Assembly: GCA_964627525.1 (NCBI GenBank)
Contig: CAZVIA010000005.1
Span: 6,078-70,077, forward strand
From: an uncultured Gammaproteobacteria bacterium
Lineage (GTDB): Bacteria; Patescibacteriota; Patescibacteriia; Magasanikbacterales; JBBTQS01
Reading direction: 5' to 3'
Length of the DNA: 64,000 nt
The notes under the pieces are model-generated. The model searched no databases, had not been told where the DNA came from, and was given only the letters and a program-made list of their open reading frames with translations. Shown piece by piece: positions 11,629 to 47,400 of this stretch (the stretch's first letter is position 1; each line of letters begins with the position of its first letter). The translations under genes and the position numbers were made by a program.

Positions 11629-13491
11629 CTAGTAACCAACCCAGAAGCGACCACTACAGCCGCTCGCGTTGTTATCCACCAAGGTGATGGACACCAACTG
11701 GTTGTCTACCCACACGACCCACTTCACTCCGGTCGAGTAACCGTCCGGGGAAGAATCGCACCAGTCCTTGTACGGCGTACCGTACTCAGTCTGATACTTC
11801 ACGTTGAAAAAGAACCATCCTCCATGCGGCAGCTTGAAGCCACCTTCTGGGGAAGTGAATGCTCCGCCATTGCCAGCATCCCAGGTGTACCACTCCTGCC
11901 AATCCCAGTGATAGTCACCAGGCGGCGGGTTGGTGCAACCAGTTGCAGACTTTCCGTCCAAGGTCAGGGTCCCGTTTTCACAGAACCAACCCTGGAGCCC
12001 AGCATGGCTCAAACCGAACGTGATGGGCCACTTGACCCAAACGTCCGCGAAATCGTCAATCTGCGGACCAACCACACATGTACCATCCTGACACACGAAC
12101 CCGTCCGAACAATCGTCGTCCGTGTTGCAGCAGAACGGCTTGGTGCTGAATTGGCAGAAACCAGTCATGACATTGCACATGTCCGTGGTACAGGGGTTGT
12201 TGTCCTCGCACACCTTGGAGGTGTAAAAGCACTGCCCGTTCACGCACGTGTCCACTGTACAAGCGTTGGCATCATTGCAGTTCATCAGATCACAAGGATC
12301 GTCCGAAACGCACTGACCCGTAGCCGAATCACAGGAGTAACCAGCACCGCAAACCTTGGGAGACTGATAGCAAGTACCATTTGCCGAGCACGAACCGATC
12401 GTGCAAGGATCTCCATCGTTGCAATGCGTGGGATTGTAGCACTCGCTGCAAAGCCCTTCCACGCAGTACGGTGTATTACCACCACACAACCCGCAAGAAC
12501 CACCACAACCATCAGTACCACACTCTTCTCCAGAACAGTTAGGGACGCAAGGCAGCGGCGAAGGAACAACACACTCGTTGTCCACGCACACCAACCCAGT
12601 GTCGCAATTGTAATCGTACAAGCAACACCCTAGCACCCCAGCGTAAGTGCACCCATTTACAGGGTTACACGTATCTGATGTACATGGGTTGTCATCATTG
12701 CAGTCAAGCCCACTTTCACCAGGTTGGCAAGCCATACCCTCGCAATGGTCACCCTCAGTGCATAGATCGTTATCAGTACACAAGGTTCCAGGCTCTGCTG
12801 CAACGTAACTGCAGCCATAGCCATTGACACAAGTATCCACAGTACAAACGTTGTTGTCAGCGCACGACTTCGGAGAGCCGCTTACGCACTGATCAGCGCT
12901 GCATGTGTCATTTTCGGTACAAGTATCTCCATCATCACATGCCTGACCATAACGCGGGACATTCTCACACAATCCATCGTCTTTGCAAACGTTGAATGTG
13001 CACTGATTTCCATCGTCACAATCAATGTGAAACTCGCACAGCGGATCCTGGCACGCGCCTTCAACGCAAACCATCTCGCCAACACAAGCACCACAAGAGC
13101 CACCGCAACTGTCTGTACCACATACCTTGTCCAGGCAATTCGGCATACAGCAAGTGTTTTCATAACACACCTCGCCGCCAGTACAGTCTGGGTTACTCTG
13201 GCACACGCCAACGGGTCCATCATCCGGAGTTCCCTCGTCAGGAGTGCCTTCATCTGGGCTACCCACATCCGGGTTTCCAGTGTCCAGCTTCCCAACCTCG
13301 GGTTGTCCAGTGTCCGGAGTTCCAACGTCCGGGGCACTCACGTCTGCTACCGGCTGAGGCATATCCTCTTCCGGCATATTCGGGGTGCACCCAGAGCAGG
13401 TAAAAATCGCACACACAACGGACACAAGCAGAGCTGTCAACAGAACTACCAACGTCCGCATGAACTTACGATCCCTTTGGGTAAAGATCAT
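11629..13491 (-). CDS. Secreted cysteine-rich repeat protein (high GC ~57%); over 15 repeats of C-x-D-x-N-x-C-T-x-D-x-C; Pro/Asp-rich linker; C-terminal beta-rich domain
   Basis: Signal peptide MIFTQRDRKFMRTLVVLLTALLVSVVC; strong RBS AGGGAG 6 nt before ATG; repeats such as CDDGNQCTFNVC, CNDDNPCTSDTC. Confidence 0.7.
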   Translation of the reverse strand: MIFTQRDRKFMRTLVVLLTALLVSVVCAIFTCSGCTPNMPEEDMPQPVADVSAPDVGTPDTGQPEVGKLDTGNPDVGSPDEGTPDEGTPDDGPVGVCQSNPDCTGGEVCYENTCCMPNCLDKVCGTDSCGGSCGACVGEMVCVEGACQDPLCEFHIDCDDGNQCTFNVCKDDGLCENVPRYGQACDDGDTCTENDTCSADQCVSGSPKSCADNNVCTVDTCVNGYGCSYVAAEPGTLCTDNDLCTEGDHCEGMACQPGESGLDCNDDNPCTSDTCNPVNGCTYAGVLGCCLYDYNCDTGLVCVDNECVVPSPLPCVPNCSGEECGTDGCGGSCGLCGGNTPYCVEGLCSECYNPTHCNDGDPCTIGSCSANGTCYQSPKVCGAGYSCDSATGQCVSDDPCDLMNCNDANACTVDTCVNGQCFYTSKVCEDNNPCTTDMCNVMTGFCQFSTKPFCCNTDDDCSDGFVCQDGTCVVGPQIDDFADVWVKWPITFGLSHAGLQGWFCENGTLTLDGKSATGCTNPPPGDYHWDWQEWYTWDAGNGGAFTSPEGGFKLPHGGWFFFNVKYQTEYGTPYKDWCDSSPDGYSTGVKWVVWVDNQLVSITLVDNNASGCSGRFWVGY

Positions 13492-13800
13492 AACAATCTC
13501 CCTGTTGGCCCCCTAGGGCCGGTAAAGCCCGTTAAGGCGTCGAATTCTGGTCTTCTTCAGTGGAACTGTGTTCCAAACGTCCGGCTCAAGAGCGTCACTA
13601 TTGAAGGAGGGCACAATAGCGAACCCGAACCGAACGATTACAACACAGTTCATCAAGCAATTTATGTGTTTTTTTACACAAATCCTGCTTGTTAAAGGAG
13701 AGGTTATACTAGCATAATTACATGTTTTTGTCAAGCTATTTTTGTATAAGCAAGTTTATTTACTTTTTTTTGTAAATTTACAACTTATTTAACCTCAAAA

Positions 13801-13886
13801 TTTCCCTAAAATTACAAAACCCATAGCAAAGTTAATTACTACGGGCTCTGTGTTGTTAAAAGCGCTTAAGTGGCGCTCCATTGAAA
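13801..13886 (-). terminator. Conserved two-hairpin plus U-tract 3' module (copy 1) just after the stop of 13887..14990
   Basis: Hairpins agcgc-ttaagtg-gcgct and cccgtag-N12-ctatggg, then U-run (minus-strand sense). Homologous to 15241..15324 with compensatory stem changes. Confidence 0.65.
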
Positions 13887-14990
13887 CTAGAAGTTGATAA
13901 TGCCTCGGAGTTGCACTGGCACTACACCATGCCACTTTCCAAGACTGTCACGAATCCATTCGCCACCAACAGCGACCTTAGCTCCATACCTGACCAGCGA
14001 CTTTTCGTCACCGTTCAAATACGAAACACCAGCAAGAAAACCTGGACCTCGACCATCCCAAGACAACACACCCCCAGTCGAAGCCTGAGTAATTGTGCCC
14101 TCCAAGGTCAACTGAATGGCTGGGTGCACTGTGAAATCCACCCCAAAGGCAGCGCCCCAGAGATGACTGAAGTCTGCATCTTCATCAGACCCAGGCAAAT
14201 CCATTGGCTGACCAATGGCAGTGTTCAGCTCTGCATGCATTCCCAAAACCTCATTGCGGAGATTCCAGTTGTACCGCAGTGCCAACTCACCAACCAAGTG
14301 GGTGGGAAGTTCGTCGCTGTTCAAACCAGGCCTGAACCGCAAACCATATTCCAGAGACAATCCATTCCAACGATGGTTAGCCTTACCAGTAAGTCCGCCA
14401 CCACTATCACGCCCTTCTGGACCATGCACATCGTTCTCCAAACGAGAAATCCGCTGCCCTTGAAAAAGCAACGACTGGTCTTGCGATATATCTCTGGTAT
14501 CTTGGATTCCCTGCGCCTTGCAAGTACGCCAGTCCAGCTCCAAGTACAAGTACTGAAACTCGGAAACCTGCCTTGCTACTTGCGGCTCGTTACAAGAAAA
14601 CCTATGGAAATCTTGGTCAGCGGAAAACCGATCAGTGAAACTCATCTGTGCAGCTGCACACCTACGACGAGCAAGTACATACTGTGGGTTGTCCTGATAC
14701 ATACCAGGATTCACTGACACAGTAGCACGAACCTTCAAACAAGGATGACTTGCAACTACAGCGAAAAGCCGATCGAAAAGCATGGTCGCCTGTGCGCGCG
14801 GTTGCACCATACACTCAAGAGTACCATCAAACCAGTTCTCCATTGGCGCCAAATCCACACCAGAGTATGGACCTATGATTTGTTTCACTGGCTCAATCGG
14901 CAACTTGTCAACGTAAGGCGGTGGCACCTGAGCATTTGCAAGACCCGCCACAAACATGATCATCACGAAACATGCGAGTTGCTTTGACAT
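13887..14990 (-). CDS. Secreted protein with outer-membrane beta-barrel-like features (signal peptide, alternating hydrophobic strands, C-terminal ...GIINF), high GC
   Basis: Start taken at MSKQLACFVMIMFVAGLANAQ (RBS AAGGGGAAAG); C-terminal Phe and beta-strand patterns such as YGAKVAVGGEW. Confidence 0.5.
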   Translation of the reverse strand: MSKQLACFVMIMFVAGLANAQVPPPYVDKLPIEPVKQIIGPYSGVDLAPMENWFDGTLECMVQPRAQATMLFDRLFAVVASHPCLKVRATVSVNPGMYQDNPQYVLARRRCAAAQMSFTDRFSADQDFHRFSCNEPQVARQVSEFQYLYLELDWRTCKAQGIQDTRDISQDQSLLFQGQRISRLENDVHGPEGRDSGGGLTGKANHRWNGLSLEYGLRFRPGLNSDELPTHLVGELALRYNWNLRNEVLGMHAELNTAIGQPMDLPGSDEDADFSHLWGAAFGVDFTVHPAIQLTLEGTITQASTGGVLSWDGRGPGFLAGVSYLNGDEKSLVRYGAKVAVGGEWIRDSLGKWHGVVPVQLRGIINF

Positions 14991-15240
14991 CTTTTCTTTC
15001 CCCTTTGCCCAGCGGGCATTTTTAGCGCCCACTGAGCGCTTTTTCCGAACAATTGCTTATCTGCTAGTTAATCAACCAACAGATTGCAACAACTAAAGCC
15101 ATTAGCATTAATTGTTGCAACCTCTTAGCTAAAATTAGCCCAAAAATCAATCTTTTTTCTGAAGACTTAGATTAGCACAAATAAACTAATCTGTCAAGTA
15201 CTTAATACAATATATTTTTATAATCTAGAAAAACCTAATT

Positions 15241-15324
15241 TTTGCCTAAAATTACAAAACCCGCAGTAAAGTTAATTACTACGGGTCCTGTGTTGTTGAG
15301 AGCGTTTTCACGCTCTACTAGAAA
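15241..15324 (-). terminator. Conserved two-hairpin plus U-tract 3' module (copy 2) after the stop of 15325..16137
   Basis: gagagcg-ttttca-cgctct and cccgtag-N12-ctgcggg; covariation relative to copy 1 keeps pairing. Confidence 0.65.
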
Positions 15325-16137
15325 CTAGAAGTACCGACCAGACCGAGCCGAAGTACGCGACGGCGGCGGATTACGACGACCTTGCGGAGGTCGCGGTGCT
15401 GGTCGCACGATCCGACGGCGCATCGTATTGACACGACGCGGCGAGGAACCCATCACGAATCCAGCATCTGCGGCAGGCAACGAACTCGGACGATCTTCAC
15501 GACGACTACGAGTAGCACGAGGCACTGAACGATCCTCACGGCGAGCAAATCGCTGCAACACCTTACGCTCCTGAGGAGCATAGTAAGAAGTCGCGGGAGC
15601 TGCAGCACAAGGCTTCAACCAATTCAACCGATGCACTGCCTCCAAGCAATACTCCATCGCAGCCTCACGCTGGGAATGTTCGTGCTCAACTCGATCCACA
15701 GCGTTCCACTTCTCCTCCAGGACGTGACGCTGTAGAGTTAGGTCACCATTGGTGTTTCCAACAGACCTTTGCAGACCTTCCAACTCCAAGATGTTCAGAG
15801 CGGAAGCCAACTTATACCAGGTCCAGGAACCCTTCTTGGTCTCGAACAACTGGTCCACGGCATCTCGCAAAACGAGCTTGTCCGGAACCTTGTTTCCATT
15901 CAAGTCCAACTTGGGAACCTCATTCACATGATGACGTGCCGTAGCACTGCCACCAAGGGCACATTTCGTTACTGCCGAAATGGCATCACGAACCGGCTGC
16001 ATTCGACGCAACTCCGCGGCAACAGCTCGCTTTTCCTCAGCCAACTTGGCTGCCTGACCCCCCTTTCGGTTATGGGCCAATGCCGTCATCGGAATCGCGA
16101 ACAGAACGATGAGAATGAGTGCGATACTTCGCTTCAT
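15325..16137 (-). CDS. Secreted protein with Arg/Pro-rich disordered C-terminal tail ending ...GRYF (high GC)
   Basis: Start at MKRSIALILIVLFAIPMTALA (RBS GGAGGGAAGG); signal peptide; tail RRRIVRPAPRPPQGRRNPPPSR. Confidence 0.5.
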   Translation of the reverse strand: MKRSIALILIVLFAIPMTALAHNRKGGQAAKLAEEKRAVAAELRRMQPVRDAISAVTKCALGGSATARHHVNEVPKLDLNGNKVPDKLVLRDAVDQLFETKKGSWTWYKLASALNILELEGLQRSVGNTNGDLTLQRHVLEEKWNAVDRVEHEHSQREAAMEYCLEAVHRLNWLKPCAAAPATSYYAPQERKVLQRFARREDRSVPRATRSRREDRPSSLPAADAGFVMGSSPRRVNTMRRRIVRPAPRPPQGRRNPPPSRTSARSGRYF

Positions 16138-16446
16138 CTTCCTTCCCTCCAAGGAGTTTTTAAACCCCTTTGCTGTGATTCTGAAAAGGGCATACGAGAA
16201 TCACCACGCGGTGACCACGACGGCACAACGGGTGATTCCCGTGCTGCCCCTTCCATGGCTAGTTTCCAAATGTGCCGTAATTAGGGCTTAATTTACGAGA
16301 AATTTAACCCTAATTACCACACACCCAGCAAGAAGATAACTTAGCACAAATCTTAAATTTTGTCAAGCCCTAAAATCACTTACTAAAAAAACAATAAAAA
16401 AAGGCACAAAAATTGCCTAAAATTAGATAAAATAATGAATTTTTAT

Positions 16447-20581: not shown

Positions 20582-21058
20582 GTGTTGTTACACAATGAAT
20601 TTATTTGTATGGCAAAGTTGGCAATAAACAAAAAAGCTAGATTTGATTATGAAATTTTAGACACGCTTGAGGCGGGTGTTATTTTGAATGGCCAAGAAGC
20701 TAAATCTGTAAGAGAAGGTGGATTGAGATTGGTTGAGTCTTTTGTAACTTTTAAGGGTGAGGAAGCTTTTATAACAAATGCACACATTAATCGTTACAGC
20801 AAAGCAAGTTCGCATTTGGAACATGACCCAACTCGCCCGCGAAAATTATTGTTGCATAAAAAACAAATTGCTCGGCTGATTGGAAAAAAATCTGTTGAGG
20901 GCTTGACAATTGTGCCTTTGTGTGCTTATATTAAAGGAGGAAAAATTAAAATAGAAATTGGAATTGCGCGCGGTAAAAAGAAACATGACAAGCGCGCGGT
21001 TTTGAAAAAACGCGACACTGATAGAGAAATCAGAAGAGCCCTTAAAAAAAACCTCTAA
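20582..21058 (+). CDS. smpB: SsrA-binding protein SmpB (probable true start at 20609, MAKLAINKK)
   Basis: NKKARFDYEILDTLEAGVILNGQEAKSVREGGLRLVESFV matches the SmpB core; immediately upstream of tmRNA. Confidence 0.85.
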   Translation: MLLHNEFICMAKLAINKKARFDYEILDTLEAGVILNGQEAKSVREGGLRLVESFVTFKGEEAFITNAHINRYSKASSHLEHDPTRPRKLLLHKKQIARLIGKKSVEGLTIVPLCAYIKGGKIKIEIGIARGKKKHDKRAVLKKRDTDREIRRALKKNL

Positions 21059-21060
21059 AA

Positions 21061-21133
21061 TTCGCATACTAATTTTGTACCGTTTGCCCGTAGAGGGTGG
21101 TCGAAGGCCATAGGTGCAAAATTAGTATGCGAA
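21061..21133 (+). terminator. Perfect 17-bp hairpin (TTCGCATACTAATTTTG / CAAAATTAGTATGCGAA) with 39-nt GC-rich loop plus TTTT, between smpB and ssrA
   Basis: Read directly; ends 7 nt before tmRNA GGGG. Confidence 0.55.
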
Positions 21134-21140
21134 TTTTACT

Positions 21141-21520
21141 GGGGATGACAGGCATCGATGGGAGGTTCGTGTAATTTTCTTGCGTATCAAGTTTGTATGT
21201 TCTTGTAAAAAATATTCAAACGATTACGTGCAAACGTTTTCAACAAAGTGAAAAACGCTTTCCGCGTTCCTTCACTTTCAATGGTAGCAGCTTAAAAGCA
21301 GCAACCCATCGCGTCCTGACGTCTCTAGGGGCAACGCGGTGTTATAATGAGACTTAGGTTTGCGAGACTTCTCCACTTGTAAACTGAAATAATTGGAGAT
21401 AGACATTACAAGACTTTGATTGTTTGTTGCTTGTAGTGCGACCCCTTCAAACAATCTACATACGTAGATAAGTTTATTGCATACTCACCAGACGCGGGTT
21501 CGAATCCCGCCATCTCCACA
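21141..21520 (+). ncRNA. ssrA: tmRNA (SsrA); predicted tag ANVFNKVKNAFRVPSLSMVAA
   Basis: 5' GGGGATGACAGGCATCGATGGGAGGTTCG and 3' GACGCGGGTTCGAATCCCGCCATCTCCA(CA) match the tmRNA tRNA-like-domain consensus; in-frame tag ends GTA GCA GCT TAA. Confidence 0.85.
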
Positions 21521-21602
21521 TTTTTAAATCACAAACGACCAGAGGTTTTCTTCTGGTCGTTCGTTGGTTGGAATGCTTGGTGTTCACACCTGTTGCCAAG
21601 CG

Positions 21603-21815
21603 CTAGCGCCTAGCTGCCGGAGCAAGCACAACCATGGTACAGTTGGTACACAAGTACACATCATGCGGACCATTCCTGTGACGGAAATAGCAGTCGTGCA
21701 CTCCCCCACAGTTATGGCAGTACAAAGGAACTCGTCCGTCCATGACCACAGCCGGATGGTGTGTCTTGGTTGTTTGACCTGCAATAGGCAAAACCGCGAT
21801 TGATGCTGAGCTCAT
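21603..21815 (-). CDS. Small Cys/His-rich protein (71 aa; CHNCGG...CTNC), high GC, strong RBS GGAGGAG
   Basis: MSSASIAVLPIAGQTTKTHHPAVVMDGRVPLYCHNCGGVHDCYFRHRNGPHDVYLCTNCTMVV; ~58% GC island right after the ssrA terminator. Confidence 0.45.
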   Translation of the reverse strand: MSSASIAVLPIAGQTTKTHHPAVVMDGRVPLYCHNCGGVHDCYFRHRNGPHDVYLCTNCTMVVLAPAARR

Positions 21816-21942
21816 TTCTCCTCCCTTGGTTTTTTCACCTCCAAGCCCTGCAAATCGCCCAAAGTATATCATATTTATTTTTCTGATGCACCATGTTGAT
21901 ATTTTTTACTAATTTTGCTATACTTTTTGCGTAGAAAACTTT

Positions 21943-22548
21943 ATGAGAATTTCAAGAAAAAAACGGCCAAAACATGAGACAAAAATGCGATACAGATTTA
22001 ATCGCCATATTCGCGCAGAAGAGGTGCGTGTAATTGGTGTTAATGGAGAACATGTTGGAAATATTCCAACACAAGAGGCTGTTGCATTAGCTGAATCACA
22101 AGGATTGGATTTGGTTGAAATTAATCCAAAAGCACAACCACCTGTTTGTCGCATTGTTGAGTATGGTCAATTTAAATATCAACAAGAAAAAGAAGAGCGA
22201 ATGAAGCGTGCTCACCAAAAAGCAACTGAAGTTAAAGGAATTAGAATTAGTGCAAGAATTAGTGAACATGATCGAGATACTCGCCTTAAACAATCTGTAA
22301 AATTTTTGTCAAAAGGAAATAAATTAAAACTTGAACTAATTTTGCGTGGTCGTGAAAACGCTCAAAAAGACAGGGCAGCTGATATTGTGAAAAGTTTTAT
22401 TGAAAGTTTAAAGGAATATGCAGATATAATTGTTGAACAAGAGGTTAAACGTCAAGGTAATAAGTTTACTGCATTAGTGGGCGGAGTTGTTAAGAAAACA
22501 GACAAAAAATCGCCTGAAACTGACGCAGAAGAAGCTTCCACAGACTAA
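21943..22548 (+). CDS. infC: Translation initiation factor IF-3
   Basis: EVRVIGVNGEHVGNIPTQEAVALAESQGLDLVEINPKAQPPVCRIVEYGQFKYQ. Confidence 0.85.
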   Translation: MRISRKKRPKHETKMRYRFNRHIRAEEVRVIGVNGEHVGNIPTQEAVALAESQGLDLVEINPKAQPPVCRIVEYGQFKYQQEKEERMKRAHQKATEVKGIRISARISEHDRDTRLKQSVKFLSKGNKLKLELILRGRENAQKDRAADIVKSFIESLKEYADIIVEQEVKRQGNKFTALVGGVVKKTDKKSPETDAEEASTD

Positions 22549-22600
22549 TCTTGCAATTTTTTAGTGGATATTGTATAGTATTGCCACTGATTTTATTGAT

Positions 22601-22798
22601 ATGCCTAAGTTAAAAACACACAAAGCTACGGCTAAAAGAATTAAAAAAACAAAATCTGGTAAGCTGATTAAACGTACTGCTGGCCAGGATCATTTTAATG
22701 CACGCGAAACCGGTAAAAAAATGCGCAAGAAACGTCGTGACACTAGCGTGAGTCCTGCAAAACGTCGTGTGATTGAAAAATCAATGCCATACGCATAA
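22601..22798 (+). CDS. rpmI: 50S ribosomal protein L35
   Basis: MPKLKTHKATAKRIKKTKSGKLIKR; infC-rpmI-rplT synteny. Confidence 0.85.
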   Translation: MPKLKTHKATAKRIKKTKSGKLIKRTAGQDHFNARETGKKMRKKRRDTSVSPAKRRVIEKSMPYA

Positions 22799-22821
22799 AA
22801 ATTTTGGAGTAAAAGAGTAAT

Positions 22822-23166
22822 ATGCCTAGAGTAAAAAGAGGAAAAGTTAGACAAAAAAAACGAGCAGCAATTCTTAAACAAACAAAAGGATTTCGCTGGG
22901 GTCGTAAAAAATTAATCAAGCTGGCAAAAACAGCTATTCTTAAATCTGGTCAACATTCTTATATTGACCGCAAAAAGAAGAAAAGAGTTAATCGTCGTTT
23001 GTGGAATTTGAGAATTAATGCAGGAGCGCGTGAACATGGAATGACTTATTCAACTTTTATTTCTGCTTTAAAGAAAAAAGGATCTACTTTAGATCGCAAA
23101 GTGTTGAGTGGTTTGGCAAAAGATCATCCTACAATTTTTGAGAAGATAGTTGGGTTCGTGAAATAA
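22822..23166 (+). CDS. rplT: 50S ribosomal protein L20
   Basis: MPRVKRGKVRQKKRAAILKQTKGFRWGRKK...RRLWNLRINAGAREHG. Confidence 0.9.
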   Translation: MPRVKRGKVRQKKRAAILKQTKGFRWGRKKLIKLAKTAILKSGQHSYIDRKKKKRVNRRLWNLRINAGAREHGMTYSTFISALKKKGSTLDRKVLSGLAKDHPTIFEKIVGFVK

Positions 23167-26968: not shown

Positions 26969-27244
26969 TCACAATCTCCTTTTATAATCATCTTGTCCTT
27001 TGCGAAGAAATATATCCAAAACTTCTACAATATTTTTCTTAGAAATTATAAAATACAAAACTCTCCAACGTCCAATTCTAATTCTAAATGCCATTTGTTT
27101 TACACCAACAATACGTCGTGTTTGGGGGTGAGAAAAAGGATTTGTAGTTAATTCTTCTAATTTATTTAAAATAATTTGCTGCGTCTTTTTATCTATTTTT
27201 TTAAACTCTTTTTCAAACCTAGCACGAAAAATAATTTCGTACAT
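26969..27244 (-). CDS. RelE/ParE-family toxin
   Basis: ~91 aa; MAFRIRIGRWRVLYFI resembles the RelE/StbE core. Confidence 0.65.
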   Translation of the reverse strand: MYEIIFRARFEKEFKKIDKKTQQIILNKLEELTTNPFSHPQTRRIVGVKQMAFRIRIGRWRVLYFIISKKNIVEVLDIFLRKGQDDYKRRL

Positions 27245-27249
27245 ACTAA

Positions 27250-27483
27250 TTATAAATTACAACGTGAACGCAACTCTTTCATGCTGTATGTTTTTTGTTT
27301 GCGAGTATCTTTATATGCTTCTAAAAATCTTTTGCGATCTTCTTTAACATCTAAAACATACTCACGAAGCGCATTACGCATGAGTTCACTTCTGGTTTGA
27401 TCCATTTGTGCAGAAAGGTCGTCAATTAATTGAGTCATACCTTTTGGCAAAGAAATAGATAAAATTTGAGTTTTTCTTGACAT
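27250..27483 (-). CDS. Ribbon-helix-helix (CopG-like) antitoxin, start at MSRKTQ
   Basis: Small basic N-terminus, 4 nt upstream of the toxin gene; classic TA arrangement. Confidence 0.55.
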   Translation of the reverse strand: MSRKTQILSISLPKGMTQLIDDLSAQMDQTRSELMRNALREYVLDVKEDRKRFLEAYKDTRKQKTYSMKELRSRCNL

Positions 27484-27548
27484 AAAAGTGTAATACTTAG
27501 TATTAACATTTAAACTATAAAACAATCCTCAACCCATGTCAATAAGTT

Positions 27549-28169
27549 TTATCCTTTTATAACTTTGTATTGATCAAGGCAATATTCAAAAACTTCTAAC
27601 AAAACTTTATCCCACTGAAAATGTTTTCTTTTTTTCTTATCAATCACATCTTCATCAAAACCATAAAGCTCATGTTTTCCAATTGTAATTTTTGGCAAAT
27701 CTATTTCATGTAATAAACCTGCGATAGAATCAACACTTTTTGCAAATTTAGCATCTAAAGTTTCATGATTCTCAAATTCCTGAAAATATTTTTTTAAATT
27801 TTCATGCAAAACACCCATTGCCGCTACAAATTCTTTATCACCTTGTTCTTTTGTTTTTTTAAACATTGGAATATCACCCAAAACAGTTTCGCCAATATCA
27901 TGAATTGAAAGCATTATTAAAACTCTTCCCAAATCAACCTTAGAACTGTTTTCAATATGTGGATGTAAAAATGTGGCTATTATTGGCAAATGCCCCACAT
28001 GTTCAATCAATGGCTCACGAAATGATTTGTTTTCATAATCAAAACTTTTCAGGCCACTTTTTTCAAAAATATTTTCATAACGTTCACGCGTCACAATACA
28101 GCGATCCACATTTGCGTATTTTGTTTGAAGTTTCATTAAATTTTCCACCAAATCTTTTGTGTTGTTCAT
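27549..28169 (-). CDS. HD-domain phosphohydrolase (YfbR-like 5'-nucleotidase family)
   Basis: HVGHLPIIATFLHPH ... SIHDIGETVLGD (H...HD...D). Confidence 0.7.
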   Translation of the reverse strand: MNNTKDLVENLMKLQTKYANVDRCIVTRERYENIFEKSGLKSFDYENKSFREPLIEHVGHLPIIATFLHPHIENSSKVDLGRVLIMLSIHDIGETVLGDIPMFKKTKEQGDKEFVAAMGVLHENLKKYFQEFENHETLDAKFAKSVDSIAGLLHEIDLPKITIGKHELYGFDEDVIDKKKRKHFQWDKVLLEVFEYCLDQYKVIKG

Positions 28170-28207
28170 ATGTGACTATTATATGGGAATATTGTGTATA
28201 AAACAAA

Positions 28208-28233
28208 ACACCCTGCTTAAAAAAGGGTGTTTC
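28208..28233. terminator. Hairpin AAACACCC-tgcttaaaaaa-GGGTGTTT with flanking A/T runs (bidirectional)
   Basis: Read directly. Confidence 0.5.
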
Positions 28234-28258
28234 TTTTCGAGTGCGGATCGGACGGGAC
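28234..28258 (-). repeat. 25-nt exact duplicate of the tRNA-Asp 3' end plus trailer (ttttcgagtgcggatcggacgggac); att-like scar
   Basis: Identical to 28424-28448, which spans the 3' 16 nt of the tRNA and 9 nt of trailer. Confidence 0.8.
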
Positions 28259-28432
28259 ATTTTTCGGTTGGCTTTGCCAACCTCAAAAAGAATCCTCCTG
28301 CGCCTCGGAAGACATAAAATAAATTTTAGTCTTCGCTCACCTTAGTCAGCTTCCGAACCCCTGGGTTCTCGCCCCAACCAATCCCATATTCAAAAAGAAA
28401 TACCCCACTTGTGGAGTATTTATTTTCGAGTG

Positions 28433-28506
28433 CGGATCGGACGGGACTCGAACCCGCGACCTCCGCCGTGACAGGGCGGCATTCTAACCAGCTGAACTAC
28501 CGATCC
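28433..28506 (-). tRNA. tRNA-Asp (anticodon GTC)
   Basis: rc gives GGATCGGTAGTTCAGCTGGTTAGAATGCCGCCCTGTCACGGCGGAGGTCGCGGGTTCGAGTCCCGTCCGATCCG; cloverleaf with loop CUGUCAC; near-identical to canonical bacterial tRNA-Asp. Confidence 0.85.
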
Positions 28507-28668
28507 AAAGAATTTTTTGTGTGCCAACACTATAATATATTACTGTATTTTTGTCCAGCACCAACTCAAACTTAATTTAAAAGAAAACAGACCCTCTACA
28601 CGTTAATGTGTATCAGGTCTGCCAGTTAGGAGGAGGTTTTGCAGAACTTCATGTTCTGCGCGGACCTA

Positions 28669-30039
28669 TCAGGAAGGGCAACCAGTGTCGGGATCAGCGG
28701 GGGCTGAGTCACACGCGTCGCCGCATGCGTCTCCGTCCTCGTTCTCCTGACCATCGTTGGCGTTCAGCGGGCAGTTATCTTCTGCGTCGCCCACACCATC
28801 GTTGTCATCGTCACTGTCGCACTCGTCTCCGTAATTGTCACCGTCCGTGTCCACCTGATCCGGGTTGTCTACACCCGGGCAGTTGTCCATGGGCACGCCG
28901 TCGCCATCCATATCAGGCAGGCACACCCCGGTCGGGAGATCGTCACTCACGTAACATTCCTCATCCACGGCGCAAACCGCGGTGGGATCACAGCTCATTC
29001 CGCACACCGGATCTGAACCACACACGCCGGAACAGTTGGGAACGCACTCTACGCACGCGCCATCCTGACAGGACATGTCGCTGGCACCGAACTCACAAGG
29101 AGTCCCATCGTCTACCACAGAGGCAGCCGTGCACAAGCCAGTGGCCGGATCACAGACATCACCCATGGTACAGACCTCGTTGTCCTCACAGTCAACGGCC
29201 GTGCCAGAGCACGTGCCACCACTGCAGACATCTTCGGTCGTACACAAGTTGTCGTCGACGCAGGACTGACCGTCCTGGGCCGCGGAATCATTCTCACAGC
29301 TACCGTCGGTCTCGTCACACGAGTCCGCGGTGCAGGTATTCGAATCATCGCAATCCACTGCCGTACCGACCTGACAAGCTCCGTCCACACACACGTCACC
29401 GGTGGTGCACAGGTTGCCATCGTCGCAGGCGATATCCAAGTTGGTGCTCACGCAACCAGTCCCAACGACACACTCGTCACTGGTACAGACCTCTCCGTCA
29501 TCGCACGAAGCGTTGTTCGGAGCGTTGGCACAACCAGTCAAAGGATCACAGGAATCCACGGTGCAGGCGAAGGTGTCGTCACAGTCCGTGGCACTGGTAT
29601 CTGTCCCAGCGCACGAGCTGTCCGCACACACGTCAGTGGTGGTACACGCATTGCTGTCATCGCACGAAGCGACGTTAGCCGTGTTCACACACTGATAATT
29701 CGTACACACATCGTCGGTACAGACGTTGGTGTCGTCACACTGCGTATCCATGATACAGGCAATTGCTTCCTCACAACCTTCCGCATCGGAATCCTTGATG
29801 TACGCGCAGTATGCCTGCGTGTCACCGTCCTTCATGTAACAGAAGTATCCGGTCAAAGCGCACGGATCTGCGGGCTCTCCCGCGCAATCCGCGTCAACCG
29901 TACATTCGGTCAAACCACTCACCGTGGTTACGAACTGATCCAATGCCGGAGCATCGGTCATGTTCCCACAACCGTAGATGAGCGGAGAAACGATCAGTAC
30001 GGACAGAACGAACAGAGCGGTCTTTGACTGCTGCATCAT
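28669..30039 (-). CDS. Secreted Cys-rich repeat protein (C-x-D-x-N-x-C-T-x-D-x-C repeats) with C-terminal thrombospondin type-3 Ca-binding repeats; high GC
   Basis: Start at [24 protein letters not shown] (RBS GAGGAG); repeats [26 protein letters not shown]; TSP3: [33 protein letters not shown]. Confidence 0.7.
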
Positions 30040-30398
30040 GGGAAAAACTCCTCTTCCCACACCCAGTTTACACCAGGTGCTTTTGCTATTAGGCGTGGTT
30101 TTAAGATGATCTTGCCTAAGGATCATCCGAGCTGCGATCCGCAGTCTTTTTGCTTAAATTTTTTAAGCAAAAAAACCACAGATCAGAGTATTTTTAATAT
30201 ACACTCTCAAAAAGAGCAGGTCTTAAGTTAACATAATTATTATATTTTGTCAAGTCTTTTTTAGAAAAAAATTTTAAAACAAAAAAATTAGCTAAATTTA
30301 GCTAAAAAATAGCTGTCAAAAAGTTATCCACAAAAAAAATTTGACTAGAATTTTAAATTTTTTATAATTGGTTCTAGTCTTGCTCTGCAAGATAGAAA

Positions 30399-33454: not shown

Positions 33455-33562
33455 AGTGTTGGTATTATAGCACGATTGACTTGGCAGTATTAAAAATTTT
33501 TGCTATTATCATTTCTCACTATGCAATGGCGCATAGTGTTAACCAGGGGGAGGTTGGCTCAA

Positions 33563-34804
33563 ATGAGTGAGCAGACCAGAACCATAGCCAGATTGACTGT
33601 TGCCAGTATTCACATGATAAAAATTCCTATCTATGTTTTTCGCATAAAAGGCAAAGATGGAGCACAAAGAAGTAACATCAGATGGGTCAATGTTGGTGGA
33701 AAACTTGCAGGCATTGCATCGCGCTCTGAAGAGTACCCTTACAACATCACTGTTGTGGTGATGATAGATAGTGAGGGCAGAAAATACTTTTTAAGTTCAG
33801 ATTCTTTTAGGGTGTATGTGTTCAAAGCCAAAGATGTGCAAGTGACAACTTCAGGTAAATTTGCAAAGACAGTACTTAAGACACACTTAATAACTGGAAG
33901 GTATGGTGCTTATCATAACAATGCATGTAATTGTTCGTATCGTGATGTGCCACATCGTAAAGAGTGTTACACAACAGAATATCTTGATGCAAAAAGTGCT
34001 CTTCGAGAAAAAACTCTGTTTGACCAGCGATTTGTCCGAGTTATGTGGTCTCATGATTATCATGGCTTGAAACGCATCCATTTTGAAAAAGAATATACTT
34101 TTGAAGAGTTGTGCGCTCTTAAGCCTGGTGATGTGTTGTTTGAAGTAAAAGATCATCCATTCAAAAAAGAGACTGGAAAATTCAGTCTTCCTTGCAGAGT
34201 TGAAACTACTCCAAGTTGGATGAGGTACAAACGAACTTTTGGTTGGATCACACAAGTCAAGAAAATGACTGTGTTCACAAATGGTATTGTGCATTTTCCT
34301 TTAGAAAGGCCTTTTGGTGCAATTGGCTGGAAGCAGTGGTCTTTGATTAAATTCACACAACGCATTCATGCCGAAAACTGGCATGAGATGCTTAAAGCGA
34401 TTGAAGGTAAATATTTTGAAGGTGTAAACACATCTACAAAACTCAATCGAGCAATTCGAAATTTGCACTTTATTGGAGAAAGCCAGGATCGTATCAGAAA
34501 AATTCAGGGCGAGTGCTTCAGAGGTGGTACTTTTGATGAATGTCATGGTGTAGAAGTAGGTATTGGTGAACGACTTTTGTTCATTGGTCAAAAAAATAAT
34601 GTGCCCGTATATGTGATTGACTCCCCTAGCTATGGGACTGCACTATATGTTTTCACTGATGAAACAGTTGCGCGTAATTTTGCAAACAAACGTATCAGCG
34701 CAACTAAGGCCCAGGAATCTGCATCTGCTCGTGTGATTCATGTTGGAAAATGGGAAGCTCGAGCTAGTCAAGCTATTGCGTCTGCTAGCGTAGCAAGTTC
34801 GTAA
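33563..34804 (+). CDS. Hypothetical protein (no recognisable domain); self-contained plus-strand gene with strong RBS GGGGGAGG
   Basis: Start at MSEQTRT (the ORF track begins upstream at 33500); GC ~42%; own terminator at 34841-34872. Confidence 0.55.
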   Translation: MSEQTRTIARLTVASIHMIKIPIYVFRIKGKDGAQRSNIRWVNVGGKLAGIASRSEEYPYNITVVVMIDSEGRKYFLSSDSFRVYVFKAKDVQVTTSGKFAKTVLKTHLITGRYGAYHNNACNCSYRDVPHRKECYTTEYLDAKSALREKTLFDQRFVRVMWSHDYHGLKRIHFEKEYTFEELCALKPGDVLFEVKDHPFKKETGKFSLPCRVETTPSWMRYKRTFGWITQVKKMTVFTNGIVHFPLERPFGAIGWKQWSLIKFTQRIHAENWHEMLKAIEGKYFEGVNTSTKLNRAIRNLHFIGESQDRIRKIQGECFRGGTFDECHGVEVGIGERLLFIGQKNNVPVYVIDSPSYGTALYVFTDETVARNFANKRISATKAQESASARVIHVGKWEARASQAIASASVASS

Positions 34805-41423: not shown

Positions 41424-44400
41424 TTAAATACTACAATTTATTTTGTCAAAACTACAATCTGGCGCACATTGCAAATCTCCTCCTGTAAATCCAAAATCCG
41501 TACACTGCACACCGCTCATATCCTCATTATCACAAGATTCTTGAGCTTGCCTAACTCCATCACCACAACTTCCACCAGTTAATGTAATTTTTTTACAAGT
41601 ATTACTACAATATATGCAACTACTATTATACAGTGCTGAGCAAATATTACCATTGCTCACTCCATTATCACACTCCTCACCTATTTCAGGTTGCAAAGAA
41701 GCATCCCCACAAATCTTTTCTGGAACTGGTGGAGTTGGTGGTGGAGGTGCATATACAACTTCTGCATTAGGATCTGTTTCAGAACATTCCCAATCAGTAC
41801 TTTTTTCTATTTTACAATCAGATGTACAACCCTTAATCAAATATGCTTTATCTTTTCCAGGTGCACACCACTCTATCACATTTATATTTAAAGTTTCTGA
41901 AATTATAGGATCCCCATCACATTCTTCACCACCATTTATCAATCTATCACCACAATATGGTCCAAAAGCCTTACAATCCCAGTTACATGATTCTGACTTA
42001 GACGAAGCATGAACTGTTTGCACTTGTTCCTTTAGACAAGGCTCTGGATCACTTGTTTTTATTCCAGCTGGTAAATCTTCTACTGGCATTACAAAAGAAA
42101 CTACCTTATCATCTCCTGCAGAATATACACCAACAATTACCATTTGTTTCCCATCAACTGTTTTATAATAAATATCAACTACTTTTTCACAATCCACACT
42201 TTCAGACCCAACAGAACAAGTTCTGTTTGTAAATGCACACCTATTACCCCACACATCACATACCTCACCTTGATTTTCTTGTATAATTCCATCACCACAA
42301 GCACCATAGGCACTAATTTCACTTAAGCAATCTAAACTACAATTATTATAAGCCCCATTAAACGAAGCATTATCACAAACCTCACCACCATTTAGAACAC
42401 CATCTCCACAAAAACCAGTTGGCTGACAATTAACTTGTGACTCTGGCAAATATTTACAATCATTAGGACATTGAATTACAAAAGTACCTGGATATTCCAC
42501 GCTAGAAGCATCACTATACACACAACTTCCATAACTTGCTTTCATTCCAATTTCACACTGCTCTCCCATACTTGGATTTAAAATTCCATCACCACAAACA
42601 CCACCAGCACCAATAAATGTACTTGTTATATCTGTGCATGTTTCAACAAGATCAAATTCAGATAAATCAATACCTTTCCAATCATTTGGTCCACTACTTT
42701 CTAATTCAGCTTTTAATTTATATTCTAAACCACCTTCAGTTGATTGATAAGCATAAACATGAGAACGTTTCATGCATTGATATTGTTGTGAACCTGAATT
42801 CCAACAATTTTCAGAATTAGCACCTGATTCAGCACAACCAATCCTAAATTCATTCAAAGGATCTAATGGCATTTCAATTCCCAAAACAGAACCAAGTTGT
42901 GCTTGCCATGAATCCCAAGCACTAACACTCATAGATGGAATATATGTACCTTGTTGCAACAAAGGTGCGTTTGTGTTTTGCATTTTATAAATTTCAACAG
43001 CTTGTTTAATTTTTTGCAAATCACTCAACCTCACCATGTCTCGTTGCATTTGTTTTTTAACAGACAAGCAATCAATATATTCTTCACTACCTGGAATAAT
43101 TTTTTCTTCAGCAGTTGGAGCTTCAGCTAGACACTCTAATTCTGAAGTACATTGAATTTCTGGTTGCAAAATATTGTAAGCTTTTTTAGATTCTTTTATT
43201 GACGCACAAACACCCTGATCCCACTCTTTATTCAAATTAACATTAAATTCTAGATTATCAATTAATTGTTTGTAAATAATTTTTGTTTCAGCAGATGCTG
43301 TGTCATTATGAGAAATAATATAAATATTTGTATACCTTTCATTAAATTTTCCTTTATCATTAGACCCAGGAGTCAATTTATGATTATTGTTTTCAGTTGC
43401 AACATTAACAGCACTAATATAAATTGTGGCACCATCAACAATAGCCTGGTAACCATCAATTTCAATTACTTCGGGATTACCAGGAAATCCTTGCTCATTG
43501 TACCAATCCATTGGAGACAAATGTTTTAGGTTTTTCTGAACTCTTACACCAATAGCATCTCCATTATCTTGGTTTTGCAAGAAAAATGCTTTTAATAAAT
43601 TTGGATCATCAGCAGTTGAAACAAGCTGACCCTTAGTTAGTCCTGGTAACAAATCTTGAGTTCCATTTCCTCTACAATACCAAGTGCTAAAATTGTGTGA
43701 ACTATCAATCAATGGGAACTGACTATTTTGATATTCAGGCCAAGGATTTTCACACATTGTGTTAGTTAATTCAGCAATACCATAATACTCATTTTCAACA
43801 GTTGAAGGATTAAAGAAAGTATCATGCGTAATTGTTGCTGTTGCACGCAAAATTGCACTACCTTTATTTGGTAAAGCACTTACTATAACAACATCACCAT
43901 CATCACTAACATTTTCAATTTGTGCAATAGTTTCATTACTTACTAACCAACTCCACTCCCACTCATAATCATTTGTTTGAATTAGTGGTTGTGCAACACC
44001 ATTAATCACTGTTTCTGCTATTGCAATAAAATTACCAGCACCTTCAATACCTGGCACAAAAAATACATATTTACCAGGTTCAACACTTACACGATCTATA
44101 TCACAAACCTCAAGACCTGTTGTAAACTGCCAACTTTTATCTTGGTGCATGCTAATACTTTTCTCATTTTTAATATCTTTTCCTAAATTAACATAATAAG
44201 TAGTATTTGCTTTCAAAACCTCTGTAGGAATTATAAACAACTTACTTCTATTAACCACCTTACCCTCAATTATTTCTTGTGCATCTGCTAACTGAATTTC
44301 AAAATCAACCACACCTTCACAATCAAATAATGCATAAGCTGGCTCTACATCAAGCATCTCACGCACAAAATTAACAACTGAAAGCCATGCGCGTCTATAC

Positions 44401-47400
44401 CAAGGATCATTTATATTTTTTGTAAATTTTTGAGTTACAGTTCCACCAGCTTTTGTACAAGCTTCTTCTGTATTAGTTTTAATATAAACAGAAACATTAT
44501 CAGTTAAACTATTAGGATAAATTTTTTCATTAAATTCTGCTGTCATCATTGTGTTCCTACACACACCAGATGAAATTGGTTTTTCAGAAATAACATTTGG
44601 ACGACCATAACAACACGCATCATTTCCAACACCCAATGTATTTACATCACCACATTGTGCATCTGAAGTAAATCCACACTGAATAACATATTTTCCTTCA
44701 GCATCAACACTACCTACTGCAAATGGCAAACTAGTTGAAGCTTTTACTTCAGCAGTACGTTTATTATCTACCACATCACCACCTTCTAACCCTGTTATAT
44801 ATTGGATATGATTACTTGCAGACACACCTACATATGCACCAGCTTTTTCACAACTTGAAGCTTCATCAAACTGTGTAGTACCATCACCACAAAATGAACC
44901 ACGTTGTGCAGATGATCCTTCTAACAAACATGTTGAACTACAACCATCTCCAGAAATTATATTTCCATCATCACATGACTCACCTTTTGCAATTTCAACT
45001 TCTCCATTACCACACCAATCTGCATCACCTTGTTGTTTAGGGCCACGACCTTCCATTACGCAAAACTCACTACAAGAATTTTCAAGATTATTTTTTACAA
45101 AACCATCACAATATAAATCTTCACCCGGCTCATTTATTCCATTACCACAAACAGCCACACCAACACATTGTGCATCTAAATCTTCTGATTTTAATTTATT
45201 ACAAGCAGTATAAGACGGTGGTGTACCTGTCCACAGACAACCACTACAATACATTCCATATTCTGGATCAGCATCATCACATTCTTCGCCAATACCCACA
45301 TCCTTATTTCCACATTCAGCAACTGTTGAATTAGAACCCAACCATGTACAAACCTCACTACAACCTTCTCCACCATCACAATCTTCACCACCCAGATCTG
45401 CCATATACTGGACTTCTCCATCACCACAAACTGAATTAGGTGAATCTGCGCCTTCATTTAAACAAATACTACTACAACCATCATCACTTCTAATATTTCC
45501 ATCATCACAATTTTCACCAGGTTCAAGCACTTTATTTCCACAAACACTAGTGCCTTTTGGCTGACTTCCTTTTGCTAAACAAGAATCAGTACAATAAGGA
45601 GATTCTTTAAGTGTTTTTATTTTGGATTCTTTTCCACCAACTAATTGTGCCACACTTGAAGGCAAAACACTCCATGACCAATCATAACTACCTGCATCTA
45701 ATAATTGACCTTCTGTTGGATTACAATTATCTACTGAACCACGAGCTTCCACTTCAAAACCTCTTACAATACCTGGTCCAGACACAACAGTTTCTACAGG
45801 TACTAAGCCAGCTTCGGAAATTTCACAATTTTGTGTATTATTTTTTGATTTAAAAACCCAACTAAAGTAACGTGAATTTTCACCCAAAGGATAACGACTT
45901 TCTTCAGGAATACTTGTAATTGGAATTCCAACACCTGATTTTGAAATCAAACCATTTTCACCTAACAAAACCAAAACTCTGTGATATTTATTAGGAGGCA
46001 AGGTATATCCATTTAAAATTATTTTATTTGTTACCCAATAATTTGGAACTTGCAATGTGTAAGGTAACTTAAGTGACTCTACTTCTTTGGTTAACAAACC
46101 ATTTTCATCTGTGTCAAACAAACATGATTCATTTTCACATTCTAACACCAAAATACTAGCTGCCTTAGCTGGATTAAAAGTACTACTATTTAATCTAATT
46201 GATTGTTTTTTAACTGGCTTATCAAACTCAATTCCAACTTGCGCATTTACACAAACTGCTGAACAGAAAGGATAATAACTAGAAATTTCAGAAGACTTTA
46301 CTTTTACACTTAGCTCACCTTTTCCAACCTTATCCTTCACAGATGCCAAAATTGTTGCAGGAGTATTTGCTGGAGTTTCAGCTTTTGCATCAACAACAAT
46401 TTCTGGATAAGTATCTTCAAATTTTTGACCTTCATACCCATCTAAATCATCATAAAATTCTACGTATTTATAATCTTCATCACTTACTTCCCATGTCCAT
46501 TGATAATAAGATGAATCTAAAACAACACAAGAATTTTCTGGCTTTGCTTCTGCTTTATATTCAACAATTATTTCCTCTCCATTTTCTAATGTTTCACTTA
46601 CCCAACCTAATGAACTTGCAGTATATCTATTTGGATTAACTTCTACTGATTCAACTTTACATAATTCTTTTGACTCACGAGTTTTAAATATATAACAATA
46701 TGATTCATTTCTTGCTACATCACAACTAGTATTAATTTCCATTGGAATACTATTTGTATTTTTCAAACCATTATTCAAACCAACTCTATACCATGTATCT
46801 GGATCAAAACCAATGTGATTCATACCACCTGCTGCACCAACTACTTTTAATATTGCTCCATCTTTAGTATCATCAAAAACATAAGTTTGTACAAGAGATC
46901 CCAACATTGGACTCAATGCTTCACATTCATGATCCACTTCTCCAGGAATCTCTTCACCATCTTCTCCTATTTGATCAACCTTACCTATACATTTTTGAAC
47001 ATAAAAATTTGAATTGCTAAACGTGTTAGCATCCATTTTTTGTGAAAACACAACATTTACAATTGCATTTTTACAAATCTCTTCACCACCAGCATGACCA
47101 ACCCAAGGCGAAGGACTTTCCATACCAGAACCACATTGTTGCATTACTTGAGGAGCTCCATAATCCACAAAAATCAAAGCATCATCAGTTATTTTTGTTT
47201 GTAAATGAGTTGCTGTTACAACTGCTGGCACAACTGAAACACTCCCAGTTTCTAATGCAGCCTCCTTGCTTTCACCAGTAACTTTCATGTGAGATTGACA
47301 ACTATTAGCTCCAACAACTTTTTTAGGAATTACAACTGATTCATTATCACTGCCCCAAGACATTGAGCTTCCAAACCCAAAACAATTATCATACAAAAAG

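Follow-up and report, generated by a model that had tools for sequence, protein, structure and literature searches.

We analysed a 64,000-nt stretch of contig CAZVIA010000005.1 (hereafter the window), an AT-rich sequence (overall GC ~34%; median GC content at third codon positions, GC3, of its open reading frames (ORFs) 0.24) whose host belongs to the Patescibacteria, the nearest named relatives being Uhrbacteria-like. The single tRNA-Asp(GTC) gene of the window is followed on its own strand by a second copy of its 3' end, and the 164 nt between the two copies carry blocks and hairpins that a sister species keeps as folded sequence without coding content. We consider it about an even bet (probability roughly 0.5) that the 189-nt unit made up of the tRNA end and this interval is an old, gene-less remnant or mini-element flanked by attachment (att)-like repeats, comparable to a cis-mobilizable element (CIME), whose core has been retained as a structured RNA. 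The initial annotation of the locus had read the repeat as the scar of a lost island within a small integration hotspot.

ARAGORN and Rfam placed the tRNA gene at 28432/28433-28506 of the minus strand. A 25-mer, TTTTCGAGTGCGGATCGGACGGGAC, takes in the last 15-16 nt of this gene and has exactly two occurrences in the 64 kb, 28234-28258 and 28423-28447 (0/100 shuffled controls gave any match). Both copies had been reported in the initial annotation, with the tRNA-side coordinate one base off. Over 32 nt the two copies still agree at 30/32 positions (28227-28258 vs 28416-28447). The match begins 2 nt before the end of the T loop and runs through the 3' strand of the T stem, the 3' strand of the acceptor stem and the discriminator into the trailer, which accounts for 9-10 nt of the 25-mer and for 9-16 nt if the extended match is counted. 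Copy 2 lies downstream of tRNA-Asp and in equal orientation, both copies being on the minus strand; their starts are 189 nt apart, leaving an interval of 164 nt (28259-28422), and each is followed by its own terminator-like hairpin and U run. The proposed duplication of the tRNA 3' end and trailer downstream on the tRNA strand is therefore upheld, at 25/25 and 30/32 identity from the T loop onwards. Given that the 500-nt intergenic region was identical in 7 independently assembled contigs (ENA, JGI, Logan), we concluded that the repeat is not an assembly artefact. An eighth, shorter contig of the window population holds one copy of the repeat core, and no polymorphism was seen at the insert among the 8 contigs. 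The window contains no further degenerate copy of the tRNA end within 4 mismatches of a 17-mer, and no third repeat bounding the HD hydrolase and toxin-antitoxin genes that lie past copy 2. The parts of the locus, in the direction of the tRNA, are as follows.

28433-28506, minus strand: complete tRNA-Asp (GTC), no encoded CCA (ARAGORN; Rfam tRNA, 68.5 bits)
28423-28447, minus strand: repeat copy 1, attL-like, tRNA 3' end and trailer; 30/32 match at 28416-28447 (exact-repeat search and alignment)
28391-28421, minus strand: terminator-like hairpin 1 (AAAUACUCCAC-AAGU-GGGGUAUUU) and U run (terminator scan, 28421-28398)
28341-28385, minus strand: block A (GGGAUUGGUUGGGGCGAGAACCCAGGGGUUCGGAAGCUGACUAAG), 84% identical to sister contig L153 (consensus fold)
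28308-28334, minus strand: AU-rich hairpin (GAAGAC...GUCUUC), three two-sided pair changes in the sister, still pairing
28282-28308, minus strand: block B (CCGAGGCGCAGGAGGAUUCUUUUUGAG), 92% identical to the sister, including a terminator-like hairpin UCUUCC/GGAGGA and U run (terminator scan match 28313-28292)
28266-28282, minus strand: hairpin P3 (GGUUGGC-AAA-GCCAACC), a different perfect hairpin in the sister
28234-28258, minus strand: repeat copy 2, attR-like, displaced tRNA 3' end and trailer; 30/32 match at 28227-28258 (exact-repeat search and alignment)
28200-28231, minus strand: terminator hairpin 2 (AACACCCU...AGGGUGUU) and U run (read from the sequence; a hairpin in the 311-nt fold)

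Terminator 2, which adjoins the promoter region of the HD gene, is probably the original terminator of the tRNA-Asp gene.

Conservation and fold of the interval

The gene upstream of tRNA-Asp encodes a Cys-rich protein whose closest homologue, P0122 (52% identity by BLASTP, 56% by global alignment), is encoded on contigs L153/L154 of a sister species from a sample series common with the window. The gene order on these contigs is FtsZ-NrdR-hyp-(HtrA)-PK-LexA-(DinB)-Cys-rich gene-tRNA-Asp. The identities between the window and L153 are given below.

NrdR, PK and LexA, amino acids: 73-75%
Coding DNA overall: 68-72%
Second codon positions: 85-89%
Third codon positions (saturated): 42-51%
Spacer upstream of the tRNA: 35%
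Trailer and terminator 1: 78%
Block A (28385-28341): 84%
Block B (28308-28282): 92%
Position of copy 2: 41%

Blocks A and B of the interval are thus about as strongly conserved as second codon positions. In the AU-rich hairpin 3/6 pairs are changed on both sides and the pairing remains perfect (GAAGAC/GUCUUC to GAAAUA/UAUUUC in the sister), and at the P3 position the sister carries another perfect hairpin, GUGC-GAA-GCAC. Four one-sided changes are retained as G.U, pairs that are possible only on the tRNA-sense strand. Terminator 1 is likewise kept in the sister, where by helix comparison its one-sided changes stay G.U pairs. The consensus fold of block A contains two helices common to both species (UUGGUUG/YGACUAA and GAACC/GGUUC), and the fold z-score was -3.5 for the sense strand and -1.9 for the antisense strand. 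The 164-nt interval holds no ORF, and no reading frame is open in both window and sister. Given this conservation together with the compensatory stem changes, the lack of a shared frame and the sense-strand fold, we concluded that the interval is non-coding, folded and under constraint, and no neutral remnant; its core (blocks A and B together with the two hairpins) is kept by purifying selection as a folded nucleic acid of the tRNA-sense strand. The initial suggestion of a simple remnant of a lost element does not agree with a sequence that is conserved like second codon positions and that shows compensatory changes in its stems.

If G.U pairs are counted, the 5' part of block A can pair with both the tRNA end and copy 2: 13/15 positions of the block A 5' end then match (33/2000 shuffles equal), and over the 26-nt unit 20/26 do (equalled by 10/2000 shuffles); counting Watson-Crick pairs only, the complementarity is significant neither over 15 nor over 26 nt. 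The window fold joins block A to copy 2 in a helix of 14 bp, which is roughly as long as a tRNA acceptor/T minihelix. An inverted tRNA-like DNA copy in the interval was considered and rejected, since its identity of 16/22 is at chance level as DNA similarity and only the G.U-tolerant pairing test is modestly significant.

Other assignments of the interval were rejected as well. A small protein is contradicted by stops in all frames in one or both species, and a leader or riboswitch for a downstream gene by downstream genes that are not alike in window and sister. Scanning 28150-28680 against Rfam 15, only the tRNA passed; the next best hits had E >= 0.03 and scored far short of their cut-offs. 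As a side observation made by eye only, a 30-nt direct repeat, GTTCTAATACCATCCCATCGCTCCCGCAAAA, occurs downstream of the sister module (L153 10986-11016 and 11497-11527, 510 nt apart).

The tRNA-Asp site and its neighbouring genes

More distant members of the clade, whose PK is 59-63% identical to that of the window, carry different DNA behind the same tRNA. L157 has the Cys-rich gene, tRNA-Asp and a terminator; 36 nt past the tRNA, across the terminator, starts a tyrosine integrase of 376 aa (Phage_integrase, 115 bits) that reads toward the tRNA, and beyond it lie an ORF of 215 aa, a Toprim primase and small ORFs. L164 has the same Cys-rich gene, tRNA-Asp and terminator, then a large serine recombinase that is split over two ORFs (Resolvase and Zn-ribbon), a fragment of an IS1595 transposase, and helix-turn-helix (HTH) genes. 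The L159/L160 contigs show a minimal duplication of 83 nt, in which tRNA and terminator are followed by 23 nt and then by AGTCCCGTCCGGTCCGC with a second terminator; within the 23-nt stretch, CCGGGUGGGAC pairs with the tRNA-end copy over 11 bp through G.U pairs. Gene content past the repeat also differs between window (HD, RHH, ParE) and sister (a PD40-like ORF in L153). The proposal of an integration hotspot is borne out by these loci: the 3' side of tRNA-Asp is variable and is used by different recombinases across the clade. The 5' side, with the Cys-rich gene, is stable, and the hotspot is confined to the 3' side.

The genes on either side of the unit had been described correctly in the initial annotation, as judged by Pfam and NCBIfam (a high-GC Cys-rich/TSP3 gene, a toxin-antitoxin pair and an HD hydrolase).

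28669-30039, minus strand: gene for a secreted/lipoprotein-type Cys-rich protein, 456 aa, 57% GC, GC3 0.65; upstream of tRNA-Asp on the tRNA strand, not part of the insert
27549-28169, minus strand: HD_3 hydrolase (Pfam/NCBIfam)
27250-27525, minus strand: RHH/RelB-like antitoxin (Pfam/NCBIfam)
26969-27244, minus strand: ParE/RelE-superfamily toxin (Pfam/NCBIfam)

The HD, RHH and ParE genes (26969-28169), spaced 5-23 nt apart and situated just past copy 2, are lineage-specific and are not at that position in the sister L153; the context of an HD homologue (P0002) proved to be an unrelated locus. The Cys-rich protein has Dicty_CTDC repeats (32.9 bits, cutoff 27), two TSP_3 repeats (46.4 bits, cutoff 25) and a signal/lipoprotein-like N-terminus. 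Its gene lies directly upstream of tRNA-Asp in L153, L157 and L164, and over full length the L157 and L164 proteins match those of the window and L153 best. The gene is therefore a resident and not an arrival at the hotspot, to which the initial annotation had assigned it. Vertical inheritance of the gene had been named there as evidence against this part of the reading, and the syntenic orthologues supply it. Nor is the protein eukaryote-like, as its repeats had been called: the family is very large and bacterial, with 2,475 matches including Myxococcota, Binatia, Phycisphaerae and Uhrbacteria. Though conserved in position, the gene is foreign-looking in codon usage. Its GC3 is 0.65 in the window, 0.73 in L153 (8001-9416) and 0.89 in L157 (13814-14983), and that of housekeeping genes in L153 and L157 is 0.30-0.42. 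The window holds a Dicty_CTDC-repeat paralogue of it at 11629-13491, one of three adjacent minus-strand genes at 11629-16152 (another such gene is at 4104-5096) with 51-56% GC and GC3 of 0.49-0.57; the other two genes of 11629-16152 gave no Pfam match.

Some further features of the window were recorded in passing. Between NrdR and FtsZ, where the sister has a gap of 72 nt, lies a 434-aa ORF on the plus strand (33500-34804) that has no Pfam match and looks like a lineage-specific insertion. DinB (IMS) and HtrA, found near LexA and PK in relatives, are missing from the window. A single ORF of 3,271 aa occupies 41424-51239 and is followed by Big_5/T4SS-pilin-type and bacterial-TSP3 proteins; this same giant gene also lies ahead of the FtsA-FtsZ block in L157, L159 and L161. 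Near the window end are an HNH endonuclease with homing-endonuclease-associated repeats (58027-58677) and a restriction-modification protein with fused N6-methylase and specificity domains (60614-63127).

Similar modules behind tRNA-Asp elsewhere

A scan with the tRNA 3' 23-mer gave 64 metagenome loci. Genomes with an identical or near-identical tRNA-Asp mostly have the tRNA, one terminator and then unrelated DNA, and several have extra tRNA-end copies. Among loci with an identical tRNA 3' end the site is empty in L089, L096, L114, L118 and L145 and occupied in L107, L131 and L151, so that the comparison of related genomes suggested in the initial annotation did reveal occupied and empty states; within the window population the site shows no polymorphism. 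A synteny search with LexA in 80 species-representative genomes was uninformative, the nearest being Uhrbacteria-like, at 60-65% identity and with another tRNA-Asp.

One layout recurs in L107, L126 (two units), L131 (three tandem 136-nt units), L138 and L151. The tRNA has its own trailer and terminator and is followed by a module that starts with GGAAGC-hairpin-GUCGGGACGAGAAC, continues with hairpins and ends in a tRNA-end copy with a different trailer and terminator. The modules of this L107 type are located as follows.

L107: 2587-2733
L126: 3255-3412 and 3452-3599
L131: 1607-1970
L138: 461-603
L151: 1722-1868

In the common fold of four of them 94% of cells were paired, compared with 30-39% when the partners were slid, and 15/43 pairs were changed on both sides, a number that none of 500 shuffles reached (6.2 +/- 1.8 in shuffles); the remaining units were confirmed by the covariance model. 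The family has no match in Rfam. The L107 module had no match in plasmids, and the junction pattern of the family was not found in viral contigs. A search of the literature for this tRNA-Asp module found nothing beyond the general framework.

The window interval resembles these modules in site, in its layout with an own terminator, in hairpins, in the tRNA-end copy with a second terminator and in a block, GGGGCGAGAAC (10/11 positions of the GGGRCGAGAAC block match). By our own estimate an 11-mer with one mismatch is expected ~0.8 times by chance in a comparison of this kind. It differs in having no P1 hairpin and in the start of the identity block, which is GAGU in the L107 type and GU in the window. 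Homology of the window interval to the L107 type is unproven: an nhmmer profile without the tRNA core gave E = 35, the covariance model gave 12.9 bits vs 10.4 bits for the tRNA alone, and pairwise z did not exceed 2.3 (z <= 2.3). Other genomes have, behind tRNA-Asp, a family built in a similar way whose homology to the window interval is not demonstrable.

Other genes and copies were noted at the same site. L151 has a zeta toxin and a small partner (644-1553) between two tRNA-end copies, and in L131 a MazE-like/ParE pair (1088-1573) comes right after the module array; both echo the RHH/ParE pair of the window. An 87-aa GIY-YIG nuclease gene stands between the tRNA and a long partial copy in L135. 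This is a different kind of tRNA-Asp duplication, seen at L135 10551-10975 and at L109 7886-8095 (oriented): tRNA and terminator are followed by a partial copy that starts from the D loop and carries a covarying hairpin at the variable-arm position (TCCCGAGTACTCGGGA vs TCCCGGCTAAGCCGGGA). The SmpB-tmRNA-IF3-L35-L20 genes are directly upstream of tRNA-Asp and co-directional in L107 and L131; in the window they are at 20582-23166, convergent and 5 kb from tRNA-Asp. SmpB-L20/tRNA-Asp may be an old linkage that was broken by inversion or insertion in the window's clade.

Origin of the unit and comparison with known systems

The arrangement could have arisen by site-specific insertion at the 3' end of tRNA-Asp. 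The insert would have supplied the present tRNA end, and the original 3' end with its terminator would have been pushed 189 nt downstream to become copy 2 and terminator 2. Described in this way, the 189-nt unit would consist of a replacement end for the tRNA with the trailer belonging to it, of terminator 1 and of the 164-nt interval. Integration of islands is known to regenerate the tRNA gene and to leave a displaced 3' fragment in the same orientation; crossovers are recognised in the anticodon loop, in the T loop or at the 3' end, and attP sites in the T-stem region are a major class (PMC4383910). The att-like scar of the initial annotation therefore stands as an integration topology, with its displaced fragment; an integrase, in the window or in the interval, does not accompany it. 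Because no recombinase remains, the unit may be described as att-flanked but non-autonomous, like a very small CIME. By alignment, the sister species has the same insertion or a close relative of it. The core would be a putative small structured RNA, made by read-through of terminator 1 if it is transcribed, and in the window the block A 5' end would pair with copy 2 and so close the fold, a closure that judging by the sister would be dispensable.

Several observations weigh against this account. No integrase, transposase or other recombinase was found among the scanned ORFs of the window (~50 ORFs of >= 90 aa, the 3,271-aa ORF excluded). The integrase element with a matching att core that the initial annotation proposed to look for was encountered neither there nor in viral contigs, from which the 25-mer was absent, nor by its 21-mer in a metagenome collection that does not include the window's own population; these att-core negatives are weak, the lineage being poorly sampled. 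Viral contigs yielded no relatives of the L157 integrase, and the likewise proposed comparison of the interval with phage records gave matches to the tRNA only. By profile, the interval showed no similarity to the visible 6 kb of the L157 element, to L164 or to any other fetched locus, so descent from a larger element is inferred. The far junctions of L157 and L164 lie outside the fetched DNA and their exact crossover sites were not seen, and the tRNA-proximal trailer of L157 resembles the distal trailer of L159, which fits insertion after the terminator as well as into the tRNA. No promoter was recognised for the interval module, and terminator 1 lies upstream of it. The sister has only a decayed copy 2 (AAUG..CCGUCCG.U at that position) and folds without the closing helix of the window, which is therefore not a conserved requirement. 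A perfect 25-nt repeat in an apparently old insertion needs an extra assumption: the tRNA may have converted copy 2, the closing helix may be selected for, or the unit may have re-integrated later. Finally, the structural evidence is drawn from two species only.

It is rather unlikely that the interval is instead a host small-RNA gene, vertically inherited and not derived from a mobile element, that borrowed the tRNA 3' end and trailer for trimming by tRNA 3' processing, for stability or for mimicry of the acceptor/T arm. The strong conservation between two species with compensatory changes, the preference of the structure for the sense strand, the minihelix-like length of the helix between block A and copy 2, and the similarly built, covarying modules behind tRNA-Asp in other genomes would all be expected of such a gene. 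However, the sister lost the tRNA-like end yet retains blocks A and B, no Rfam family matches, and the module is cut off from the tRNA by a terminator and has no visible promoter. Moreover, the variable presence, tandem arrays and mobile genes at the site among genomes with the same tRNA are better fitted by insertion.

We regard as unlikely an active miniature element, mobilised in trans by a tRNA-Asp-specific integrase, that entered the window and sister lineages separately, so that their similarity would reflect recent spread. An att site that is regenerated on insertion and used again would give tandem units such as those of L131 and L126 (PMC5704250). The interval is also far more alike between the two species than neutral DNA, both species come from the same sample series, and a perfect copy 2, as in the window, is expected of a recent event. 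On the other hand, the insert is in all 8 contigs of the window population, and no empty site or circle junction was seen (the empty-site junction, with the tRNA joined to terminator 2, would read GGGTTCGAGTCCCGTCCGATCCGCACTCGAAAAGAAACACCC, and the circle or tandem junction CCAACCGAAAAATGTCCCGTCCGATCCGCACTCGAAAATAAATACTCC); no other copy exists in the window or in any fetched locus; and the decayed copy 2 of the sister and an insert divergence of 8-35% speak against a recent common source. An excised circle of 189 bp would also be mechanically demanding.

A plain neutral scar of a deleted island, without present function, is very unlikely. The att-like topology, the lack of genes or a recombinase and the scar-looking 83-nt version in L159/L160 agree with it, but third positions and the upstream spacer are saturated, in contrast to blocks A and B with their conservation like that of second codon positions, and the stems show compensatory changes. 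A decayed tandem tRNA-Asp duplicate with insertions is hardly credible: although a 5' GGAUUGG could pair with a 3' CCGAUCC like an acceptor stem and GGGUUCG in block A resembles the start of a T stem and T loop, ARAGORN and the Rfam tRNA model (Infernal) detect nothing in the interval, its local alignment with the tRNA is at chance (163/500 shuffles as good), there is no D or anticodon arm and the span is ~140 nt, and the duplicated part includes trailer and terminator, which this explains no better than integration does.

Returning to the att-flanked remnant with a retained core, we tentatively suggest, as a speculative extension, that the unit may belong to an undescribed class of gene-less structured modules of ~90-220 nt, inserted at or inherited with the tRNA-Asp 3' end in Patescibacteria and neighbours, each of which would come with a tRNA end and a terminator of its own and fold onto the displaced end. 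The window/L153 and L107-type modules would be its two branches, and its members either miniature integrative elements recognised via their fold or small RNAs, capped by a tRNA end, that were domesticated from integrative-element termini. A repeated tRNA end is routinely taken for a dead island scar; here the 164 nt between the repeats are as constrained as second codon positions. If the modules are RNAs or minimal mobile units, they would be a new non-coding gene class in the Candidate Phyla Radiation (CPR)/Patescibacteria, whose RNA repertoire and mobile elements are poorly known, and would show that an att-flanked remnant can be retained for function. The locus also offers a natural series for the evolution of a tRNA site, with empty, minimal, structured-module, tyrosine-integrase and serine-recombinase states. 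Even if the unit turns out to be ordinary, two corrections stand, namely the residence of the Cys-rich gene and the restriction of the hotspot to the 3' side of the tRNA.

Among known systems, integron attC sites are short (~60-140 nt), conserved in fold more than in sequence and closed by inverted repeats, and they occur in tandem arrays, often near toxin-antitoxin cassettes. The likeness of the window unit, which is short, folded, associated with recombination and closed by an inverted repeat, is an analogy only; an actual attC site was rejected, as the window has no R''/R' (RYYYAAC/GTTRRRY), no IntI or attI and no ORF-attC cassette layout. The 3' external transcribed spacer (3'ETS)-leuZ of E. 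coli is a small RNA downstream of a tRNA that is released from the common precursor, before the terminator, and carries no tRNA-end copy. Like small RNAs of this type the window module, as a predicted RNA, is encoded directly downstream of a tRNA, and unlike them it has a terminator hairpin between tRNA and module as well as a tRNA-end copy.

Insertion of islands and prophages into tRNA genes via tyrosine integrases underlies the Islander principle (PMC4383910) and was reportedly described by Williams in 2002. As in these islands and prophages, an intact tRNA is followed in the window by an equally oriented copy of its 3' end that is identical from the T loop past the gene end; also in line with them, the insert is read as supplying the replacement end, and relatives have a tyrosine integrase beside the same tRNA. 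The window differs from them in having 164 nt between the copies, no integrase and no cargo, and a content conserved as folded non-coding sequence. CIMEs are defined as having lost their integration genes and kept attL and attR (PMC5704250). The window unit is smaller, 189 nt vs usually kilobases. CIMEs as a rule also betray their descent from an integrative and conjugative element (ICE) or integrative and mobilizable element (IME), and no parent ICE, IME or prophage was recognised for the window unit; it shares with CIMEs the att-like direct repeats, the absence of integration and transfer genes, the location at a tRNA 3' end and a site that is used by other elements, as in an accretion context.

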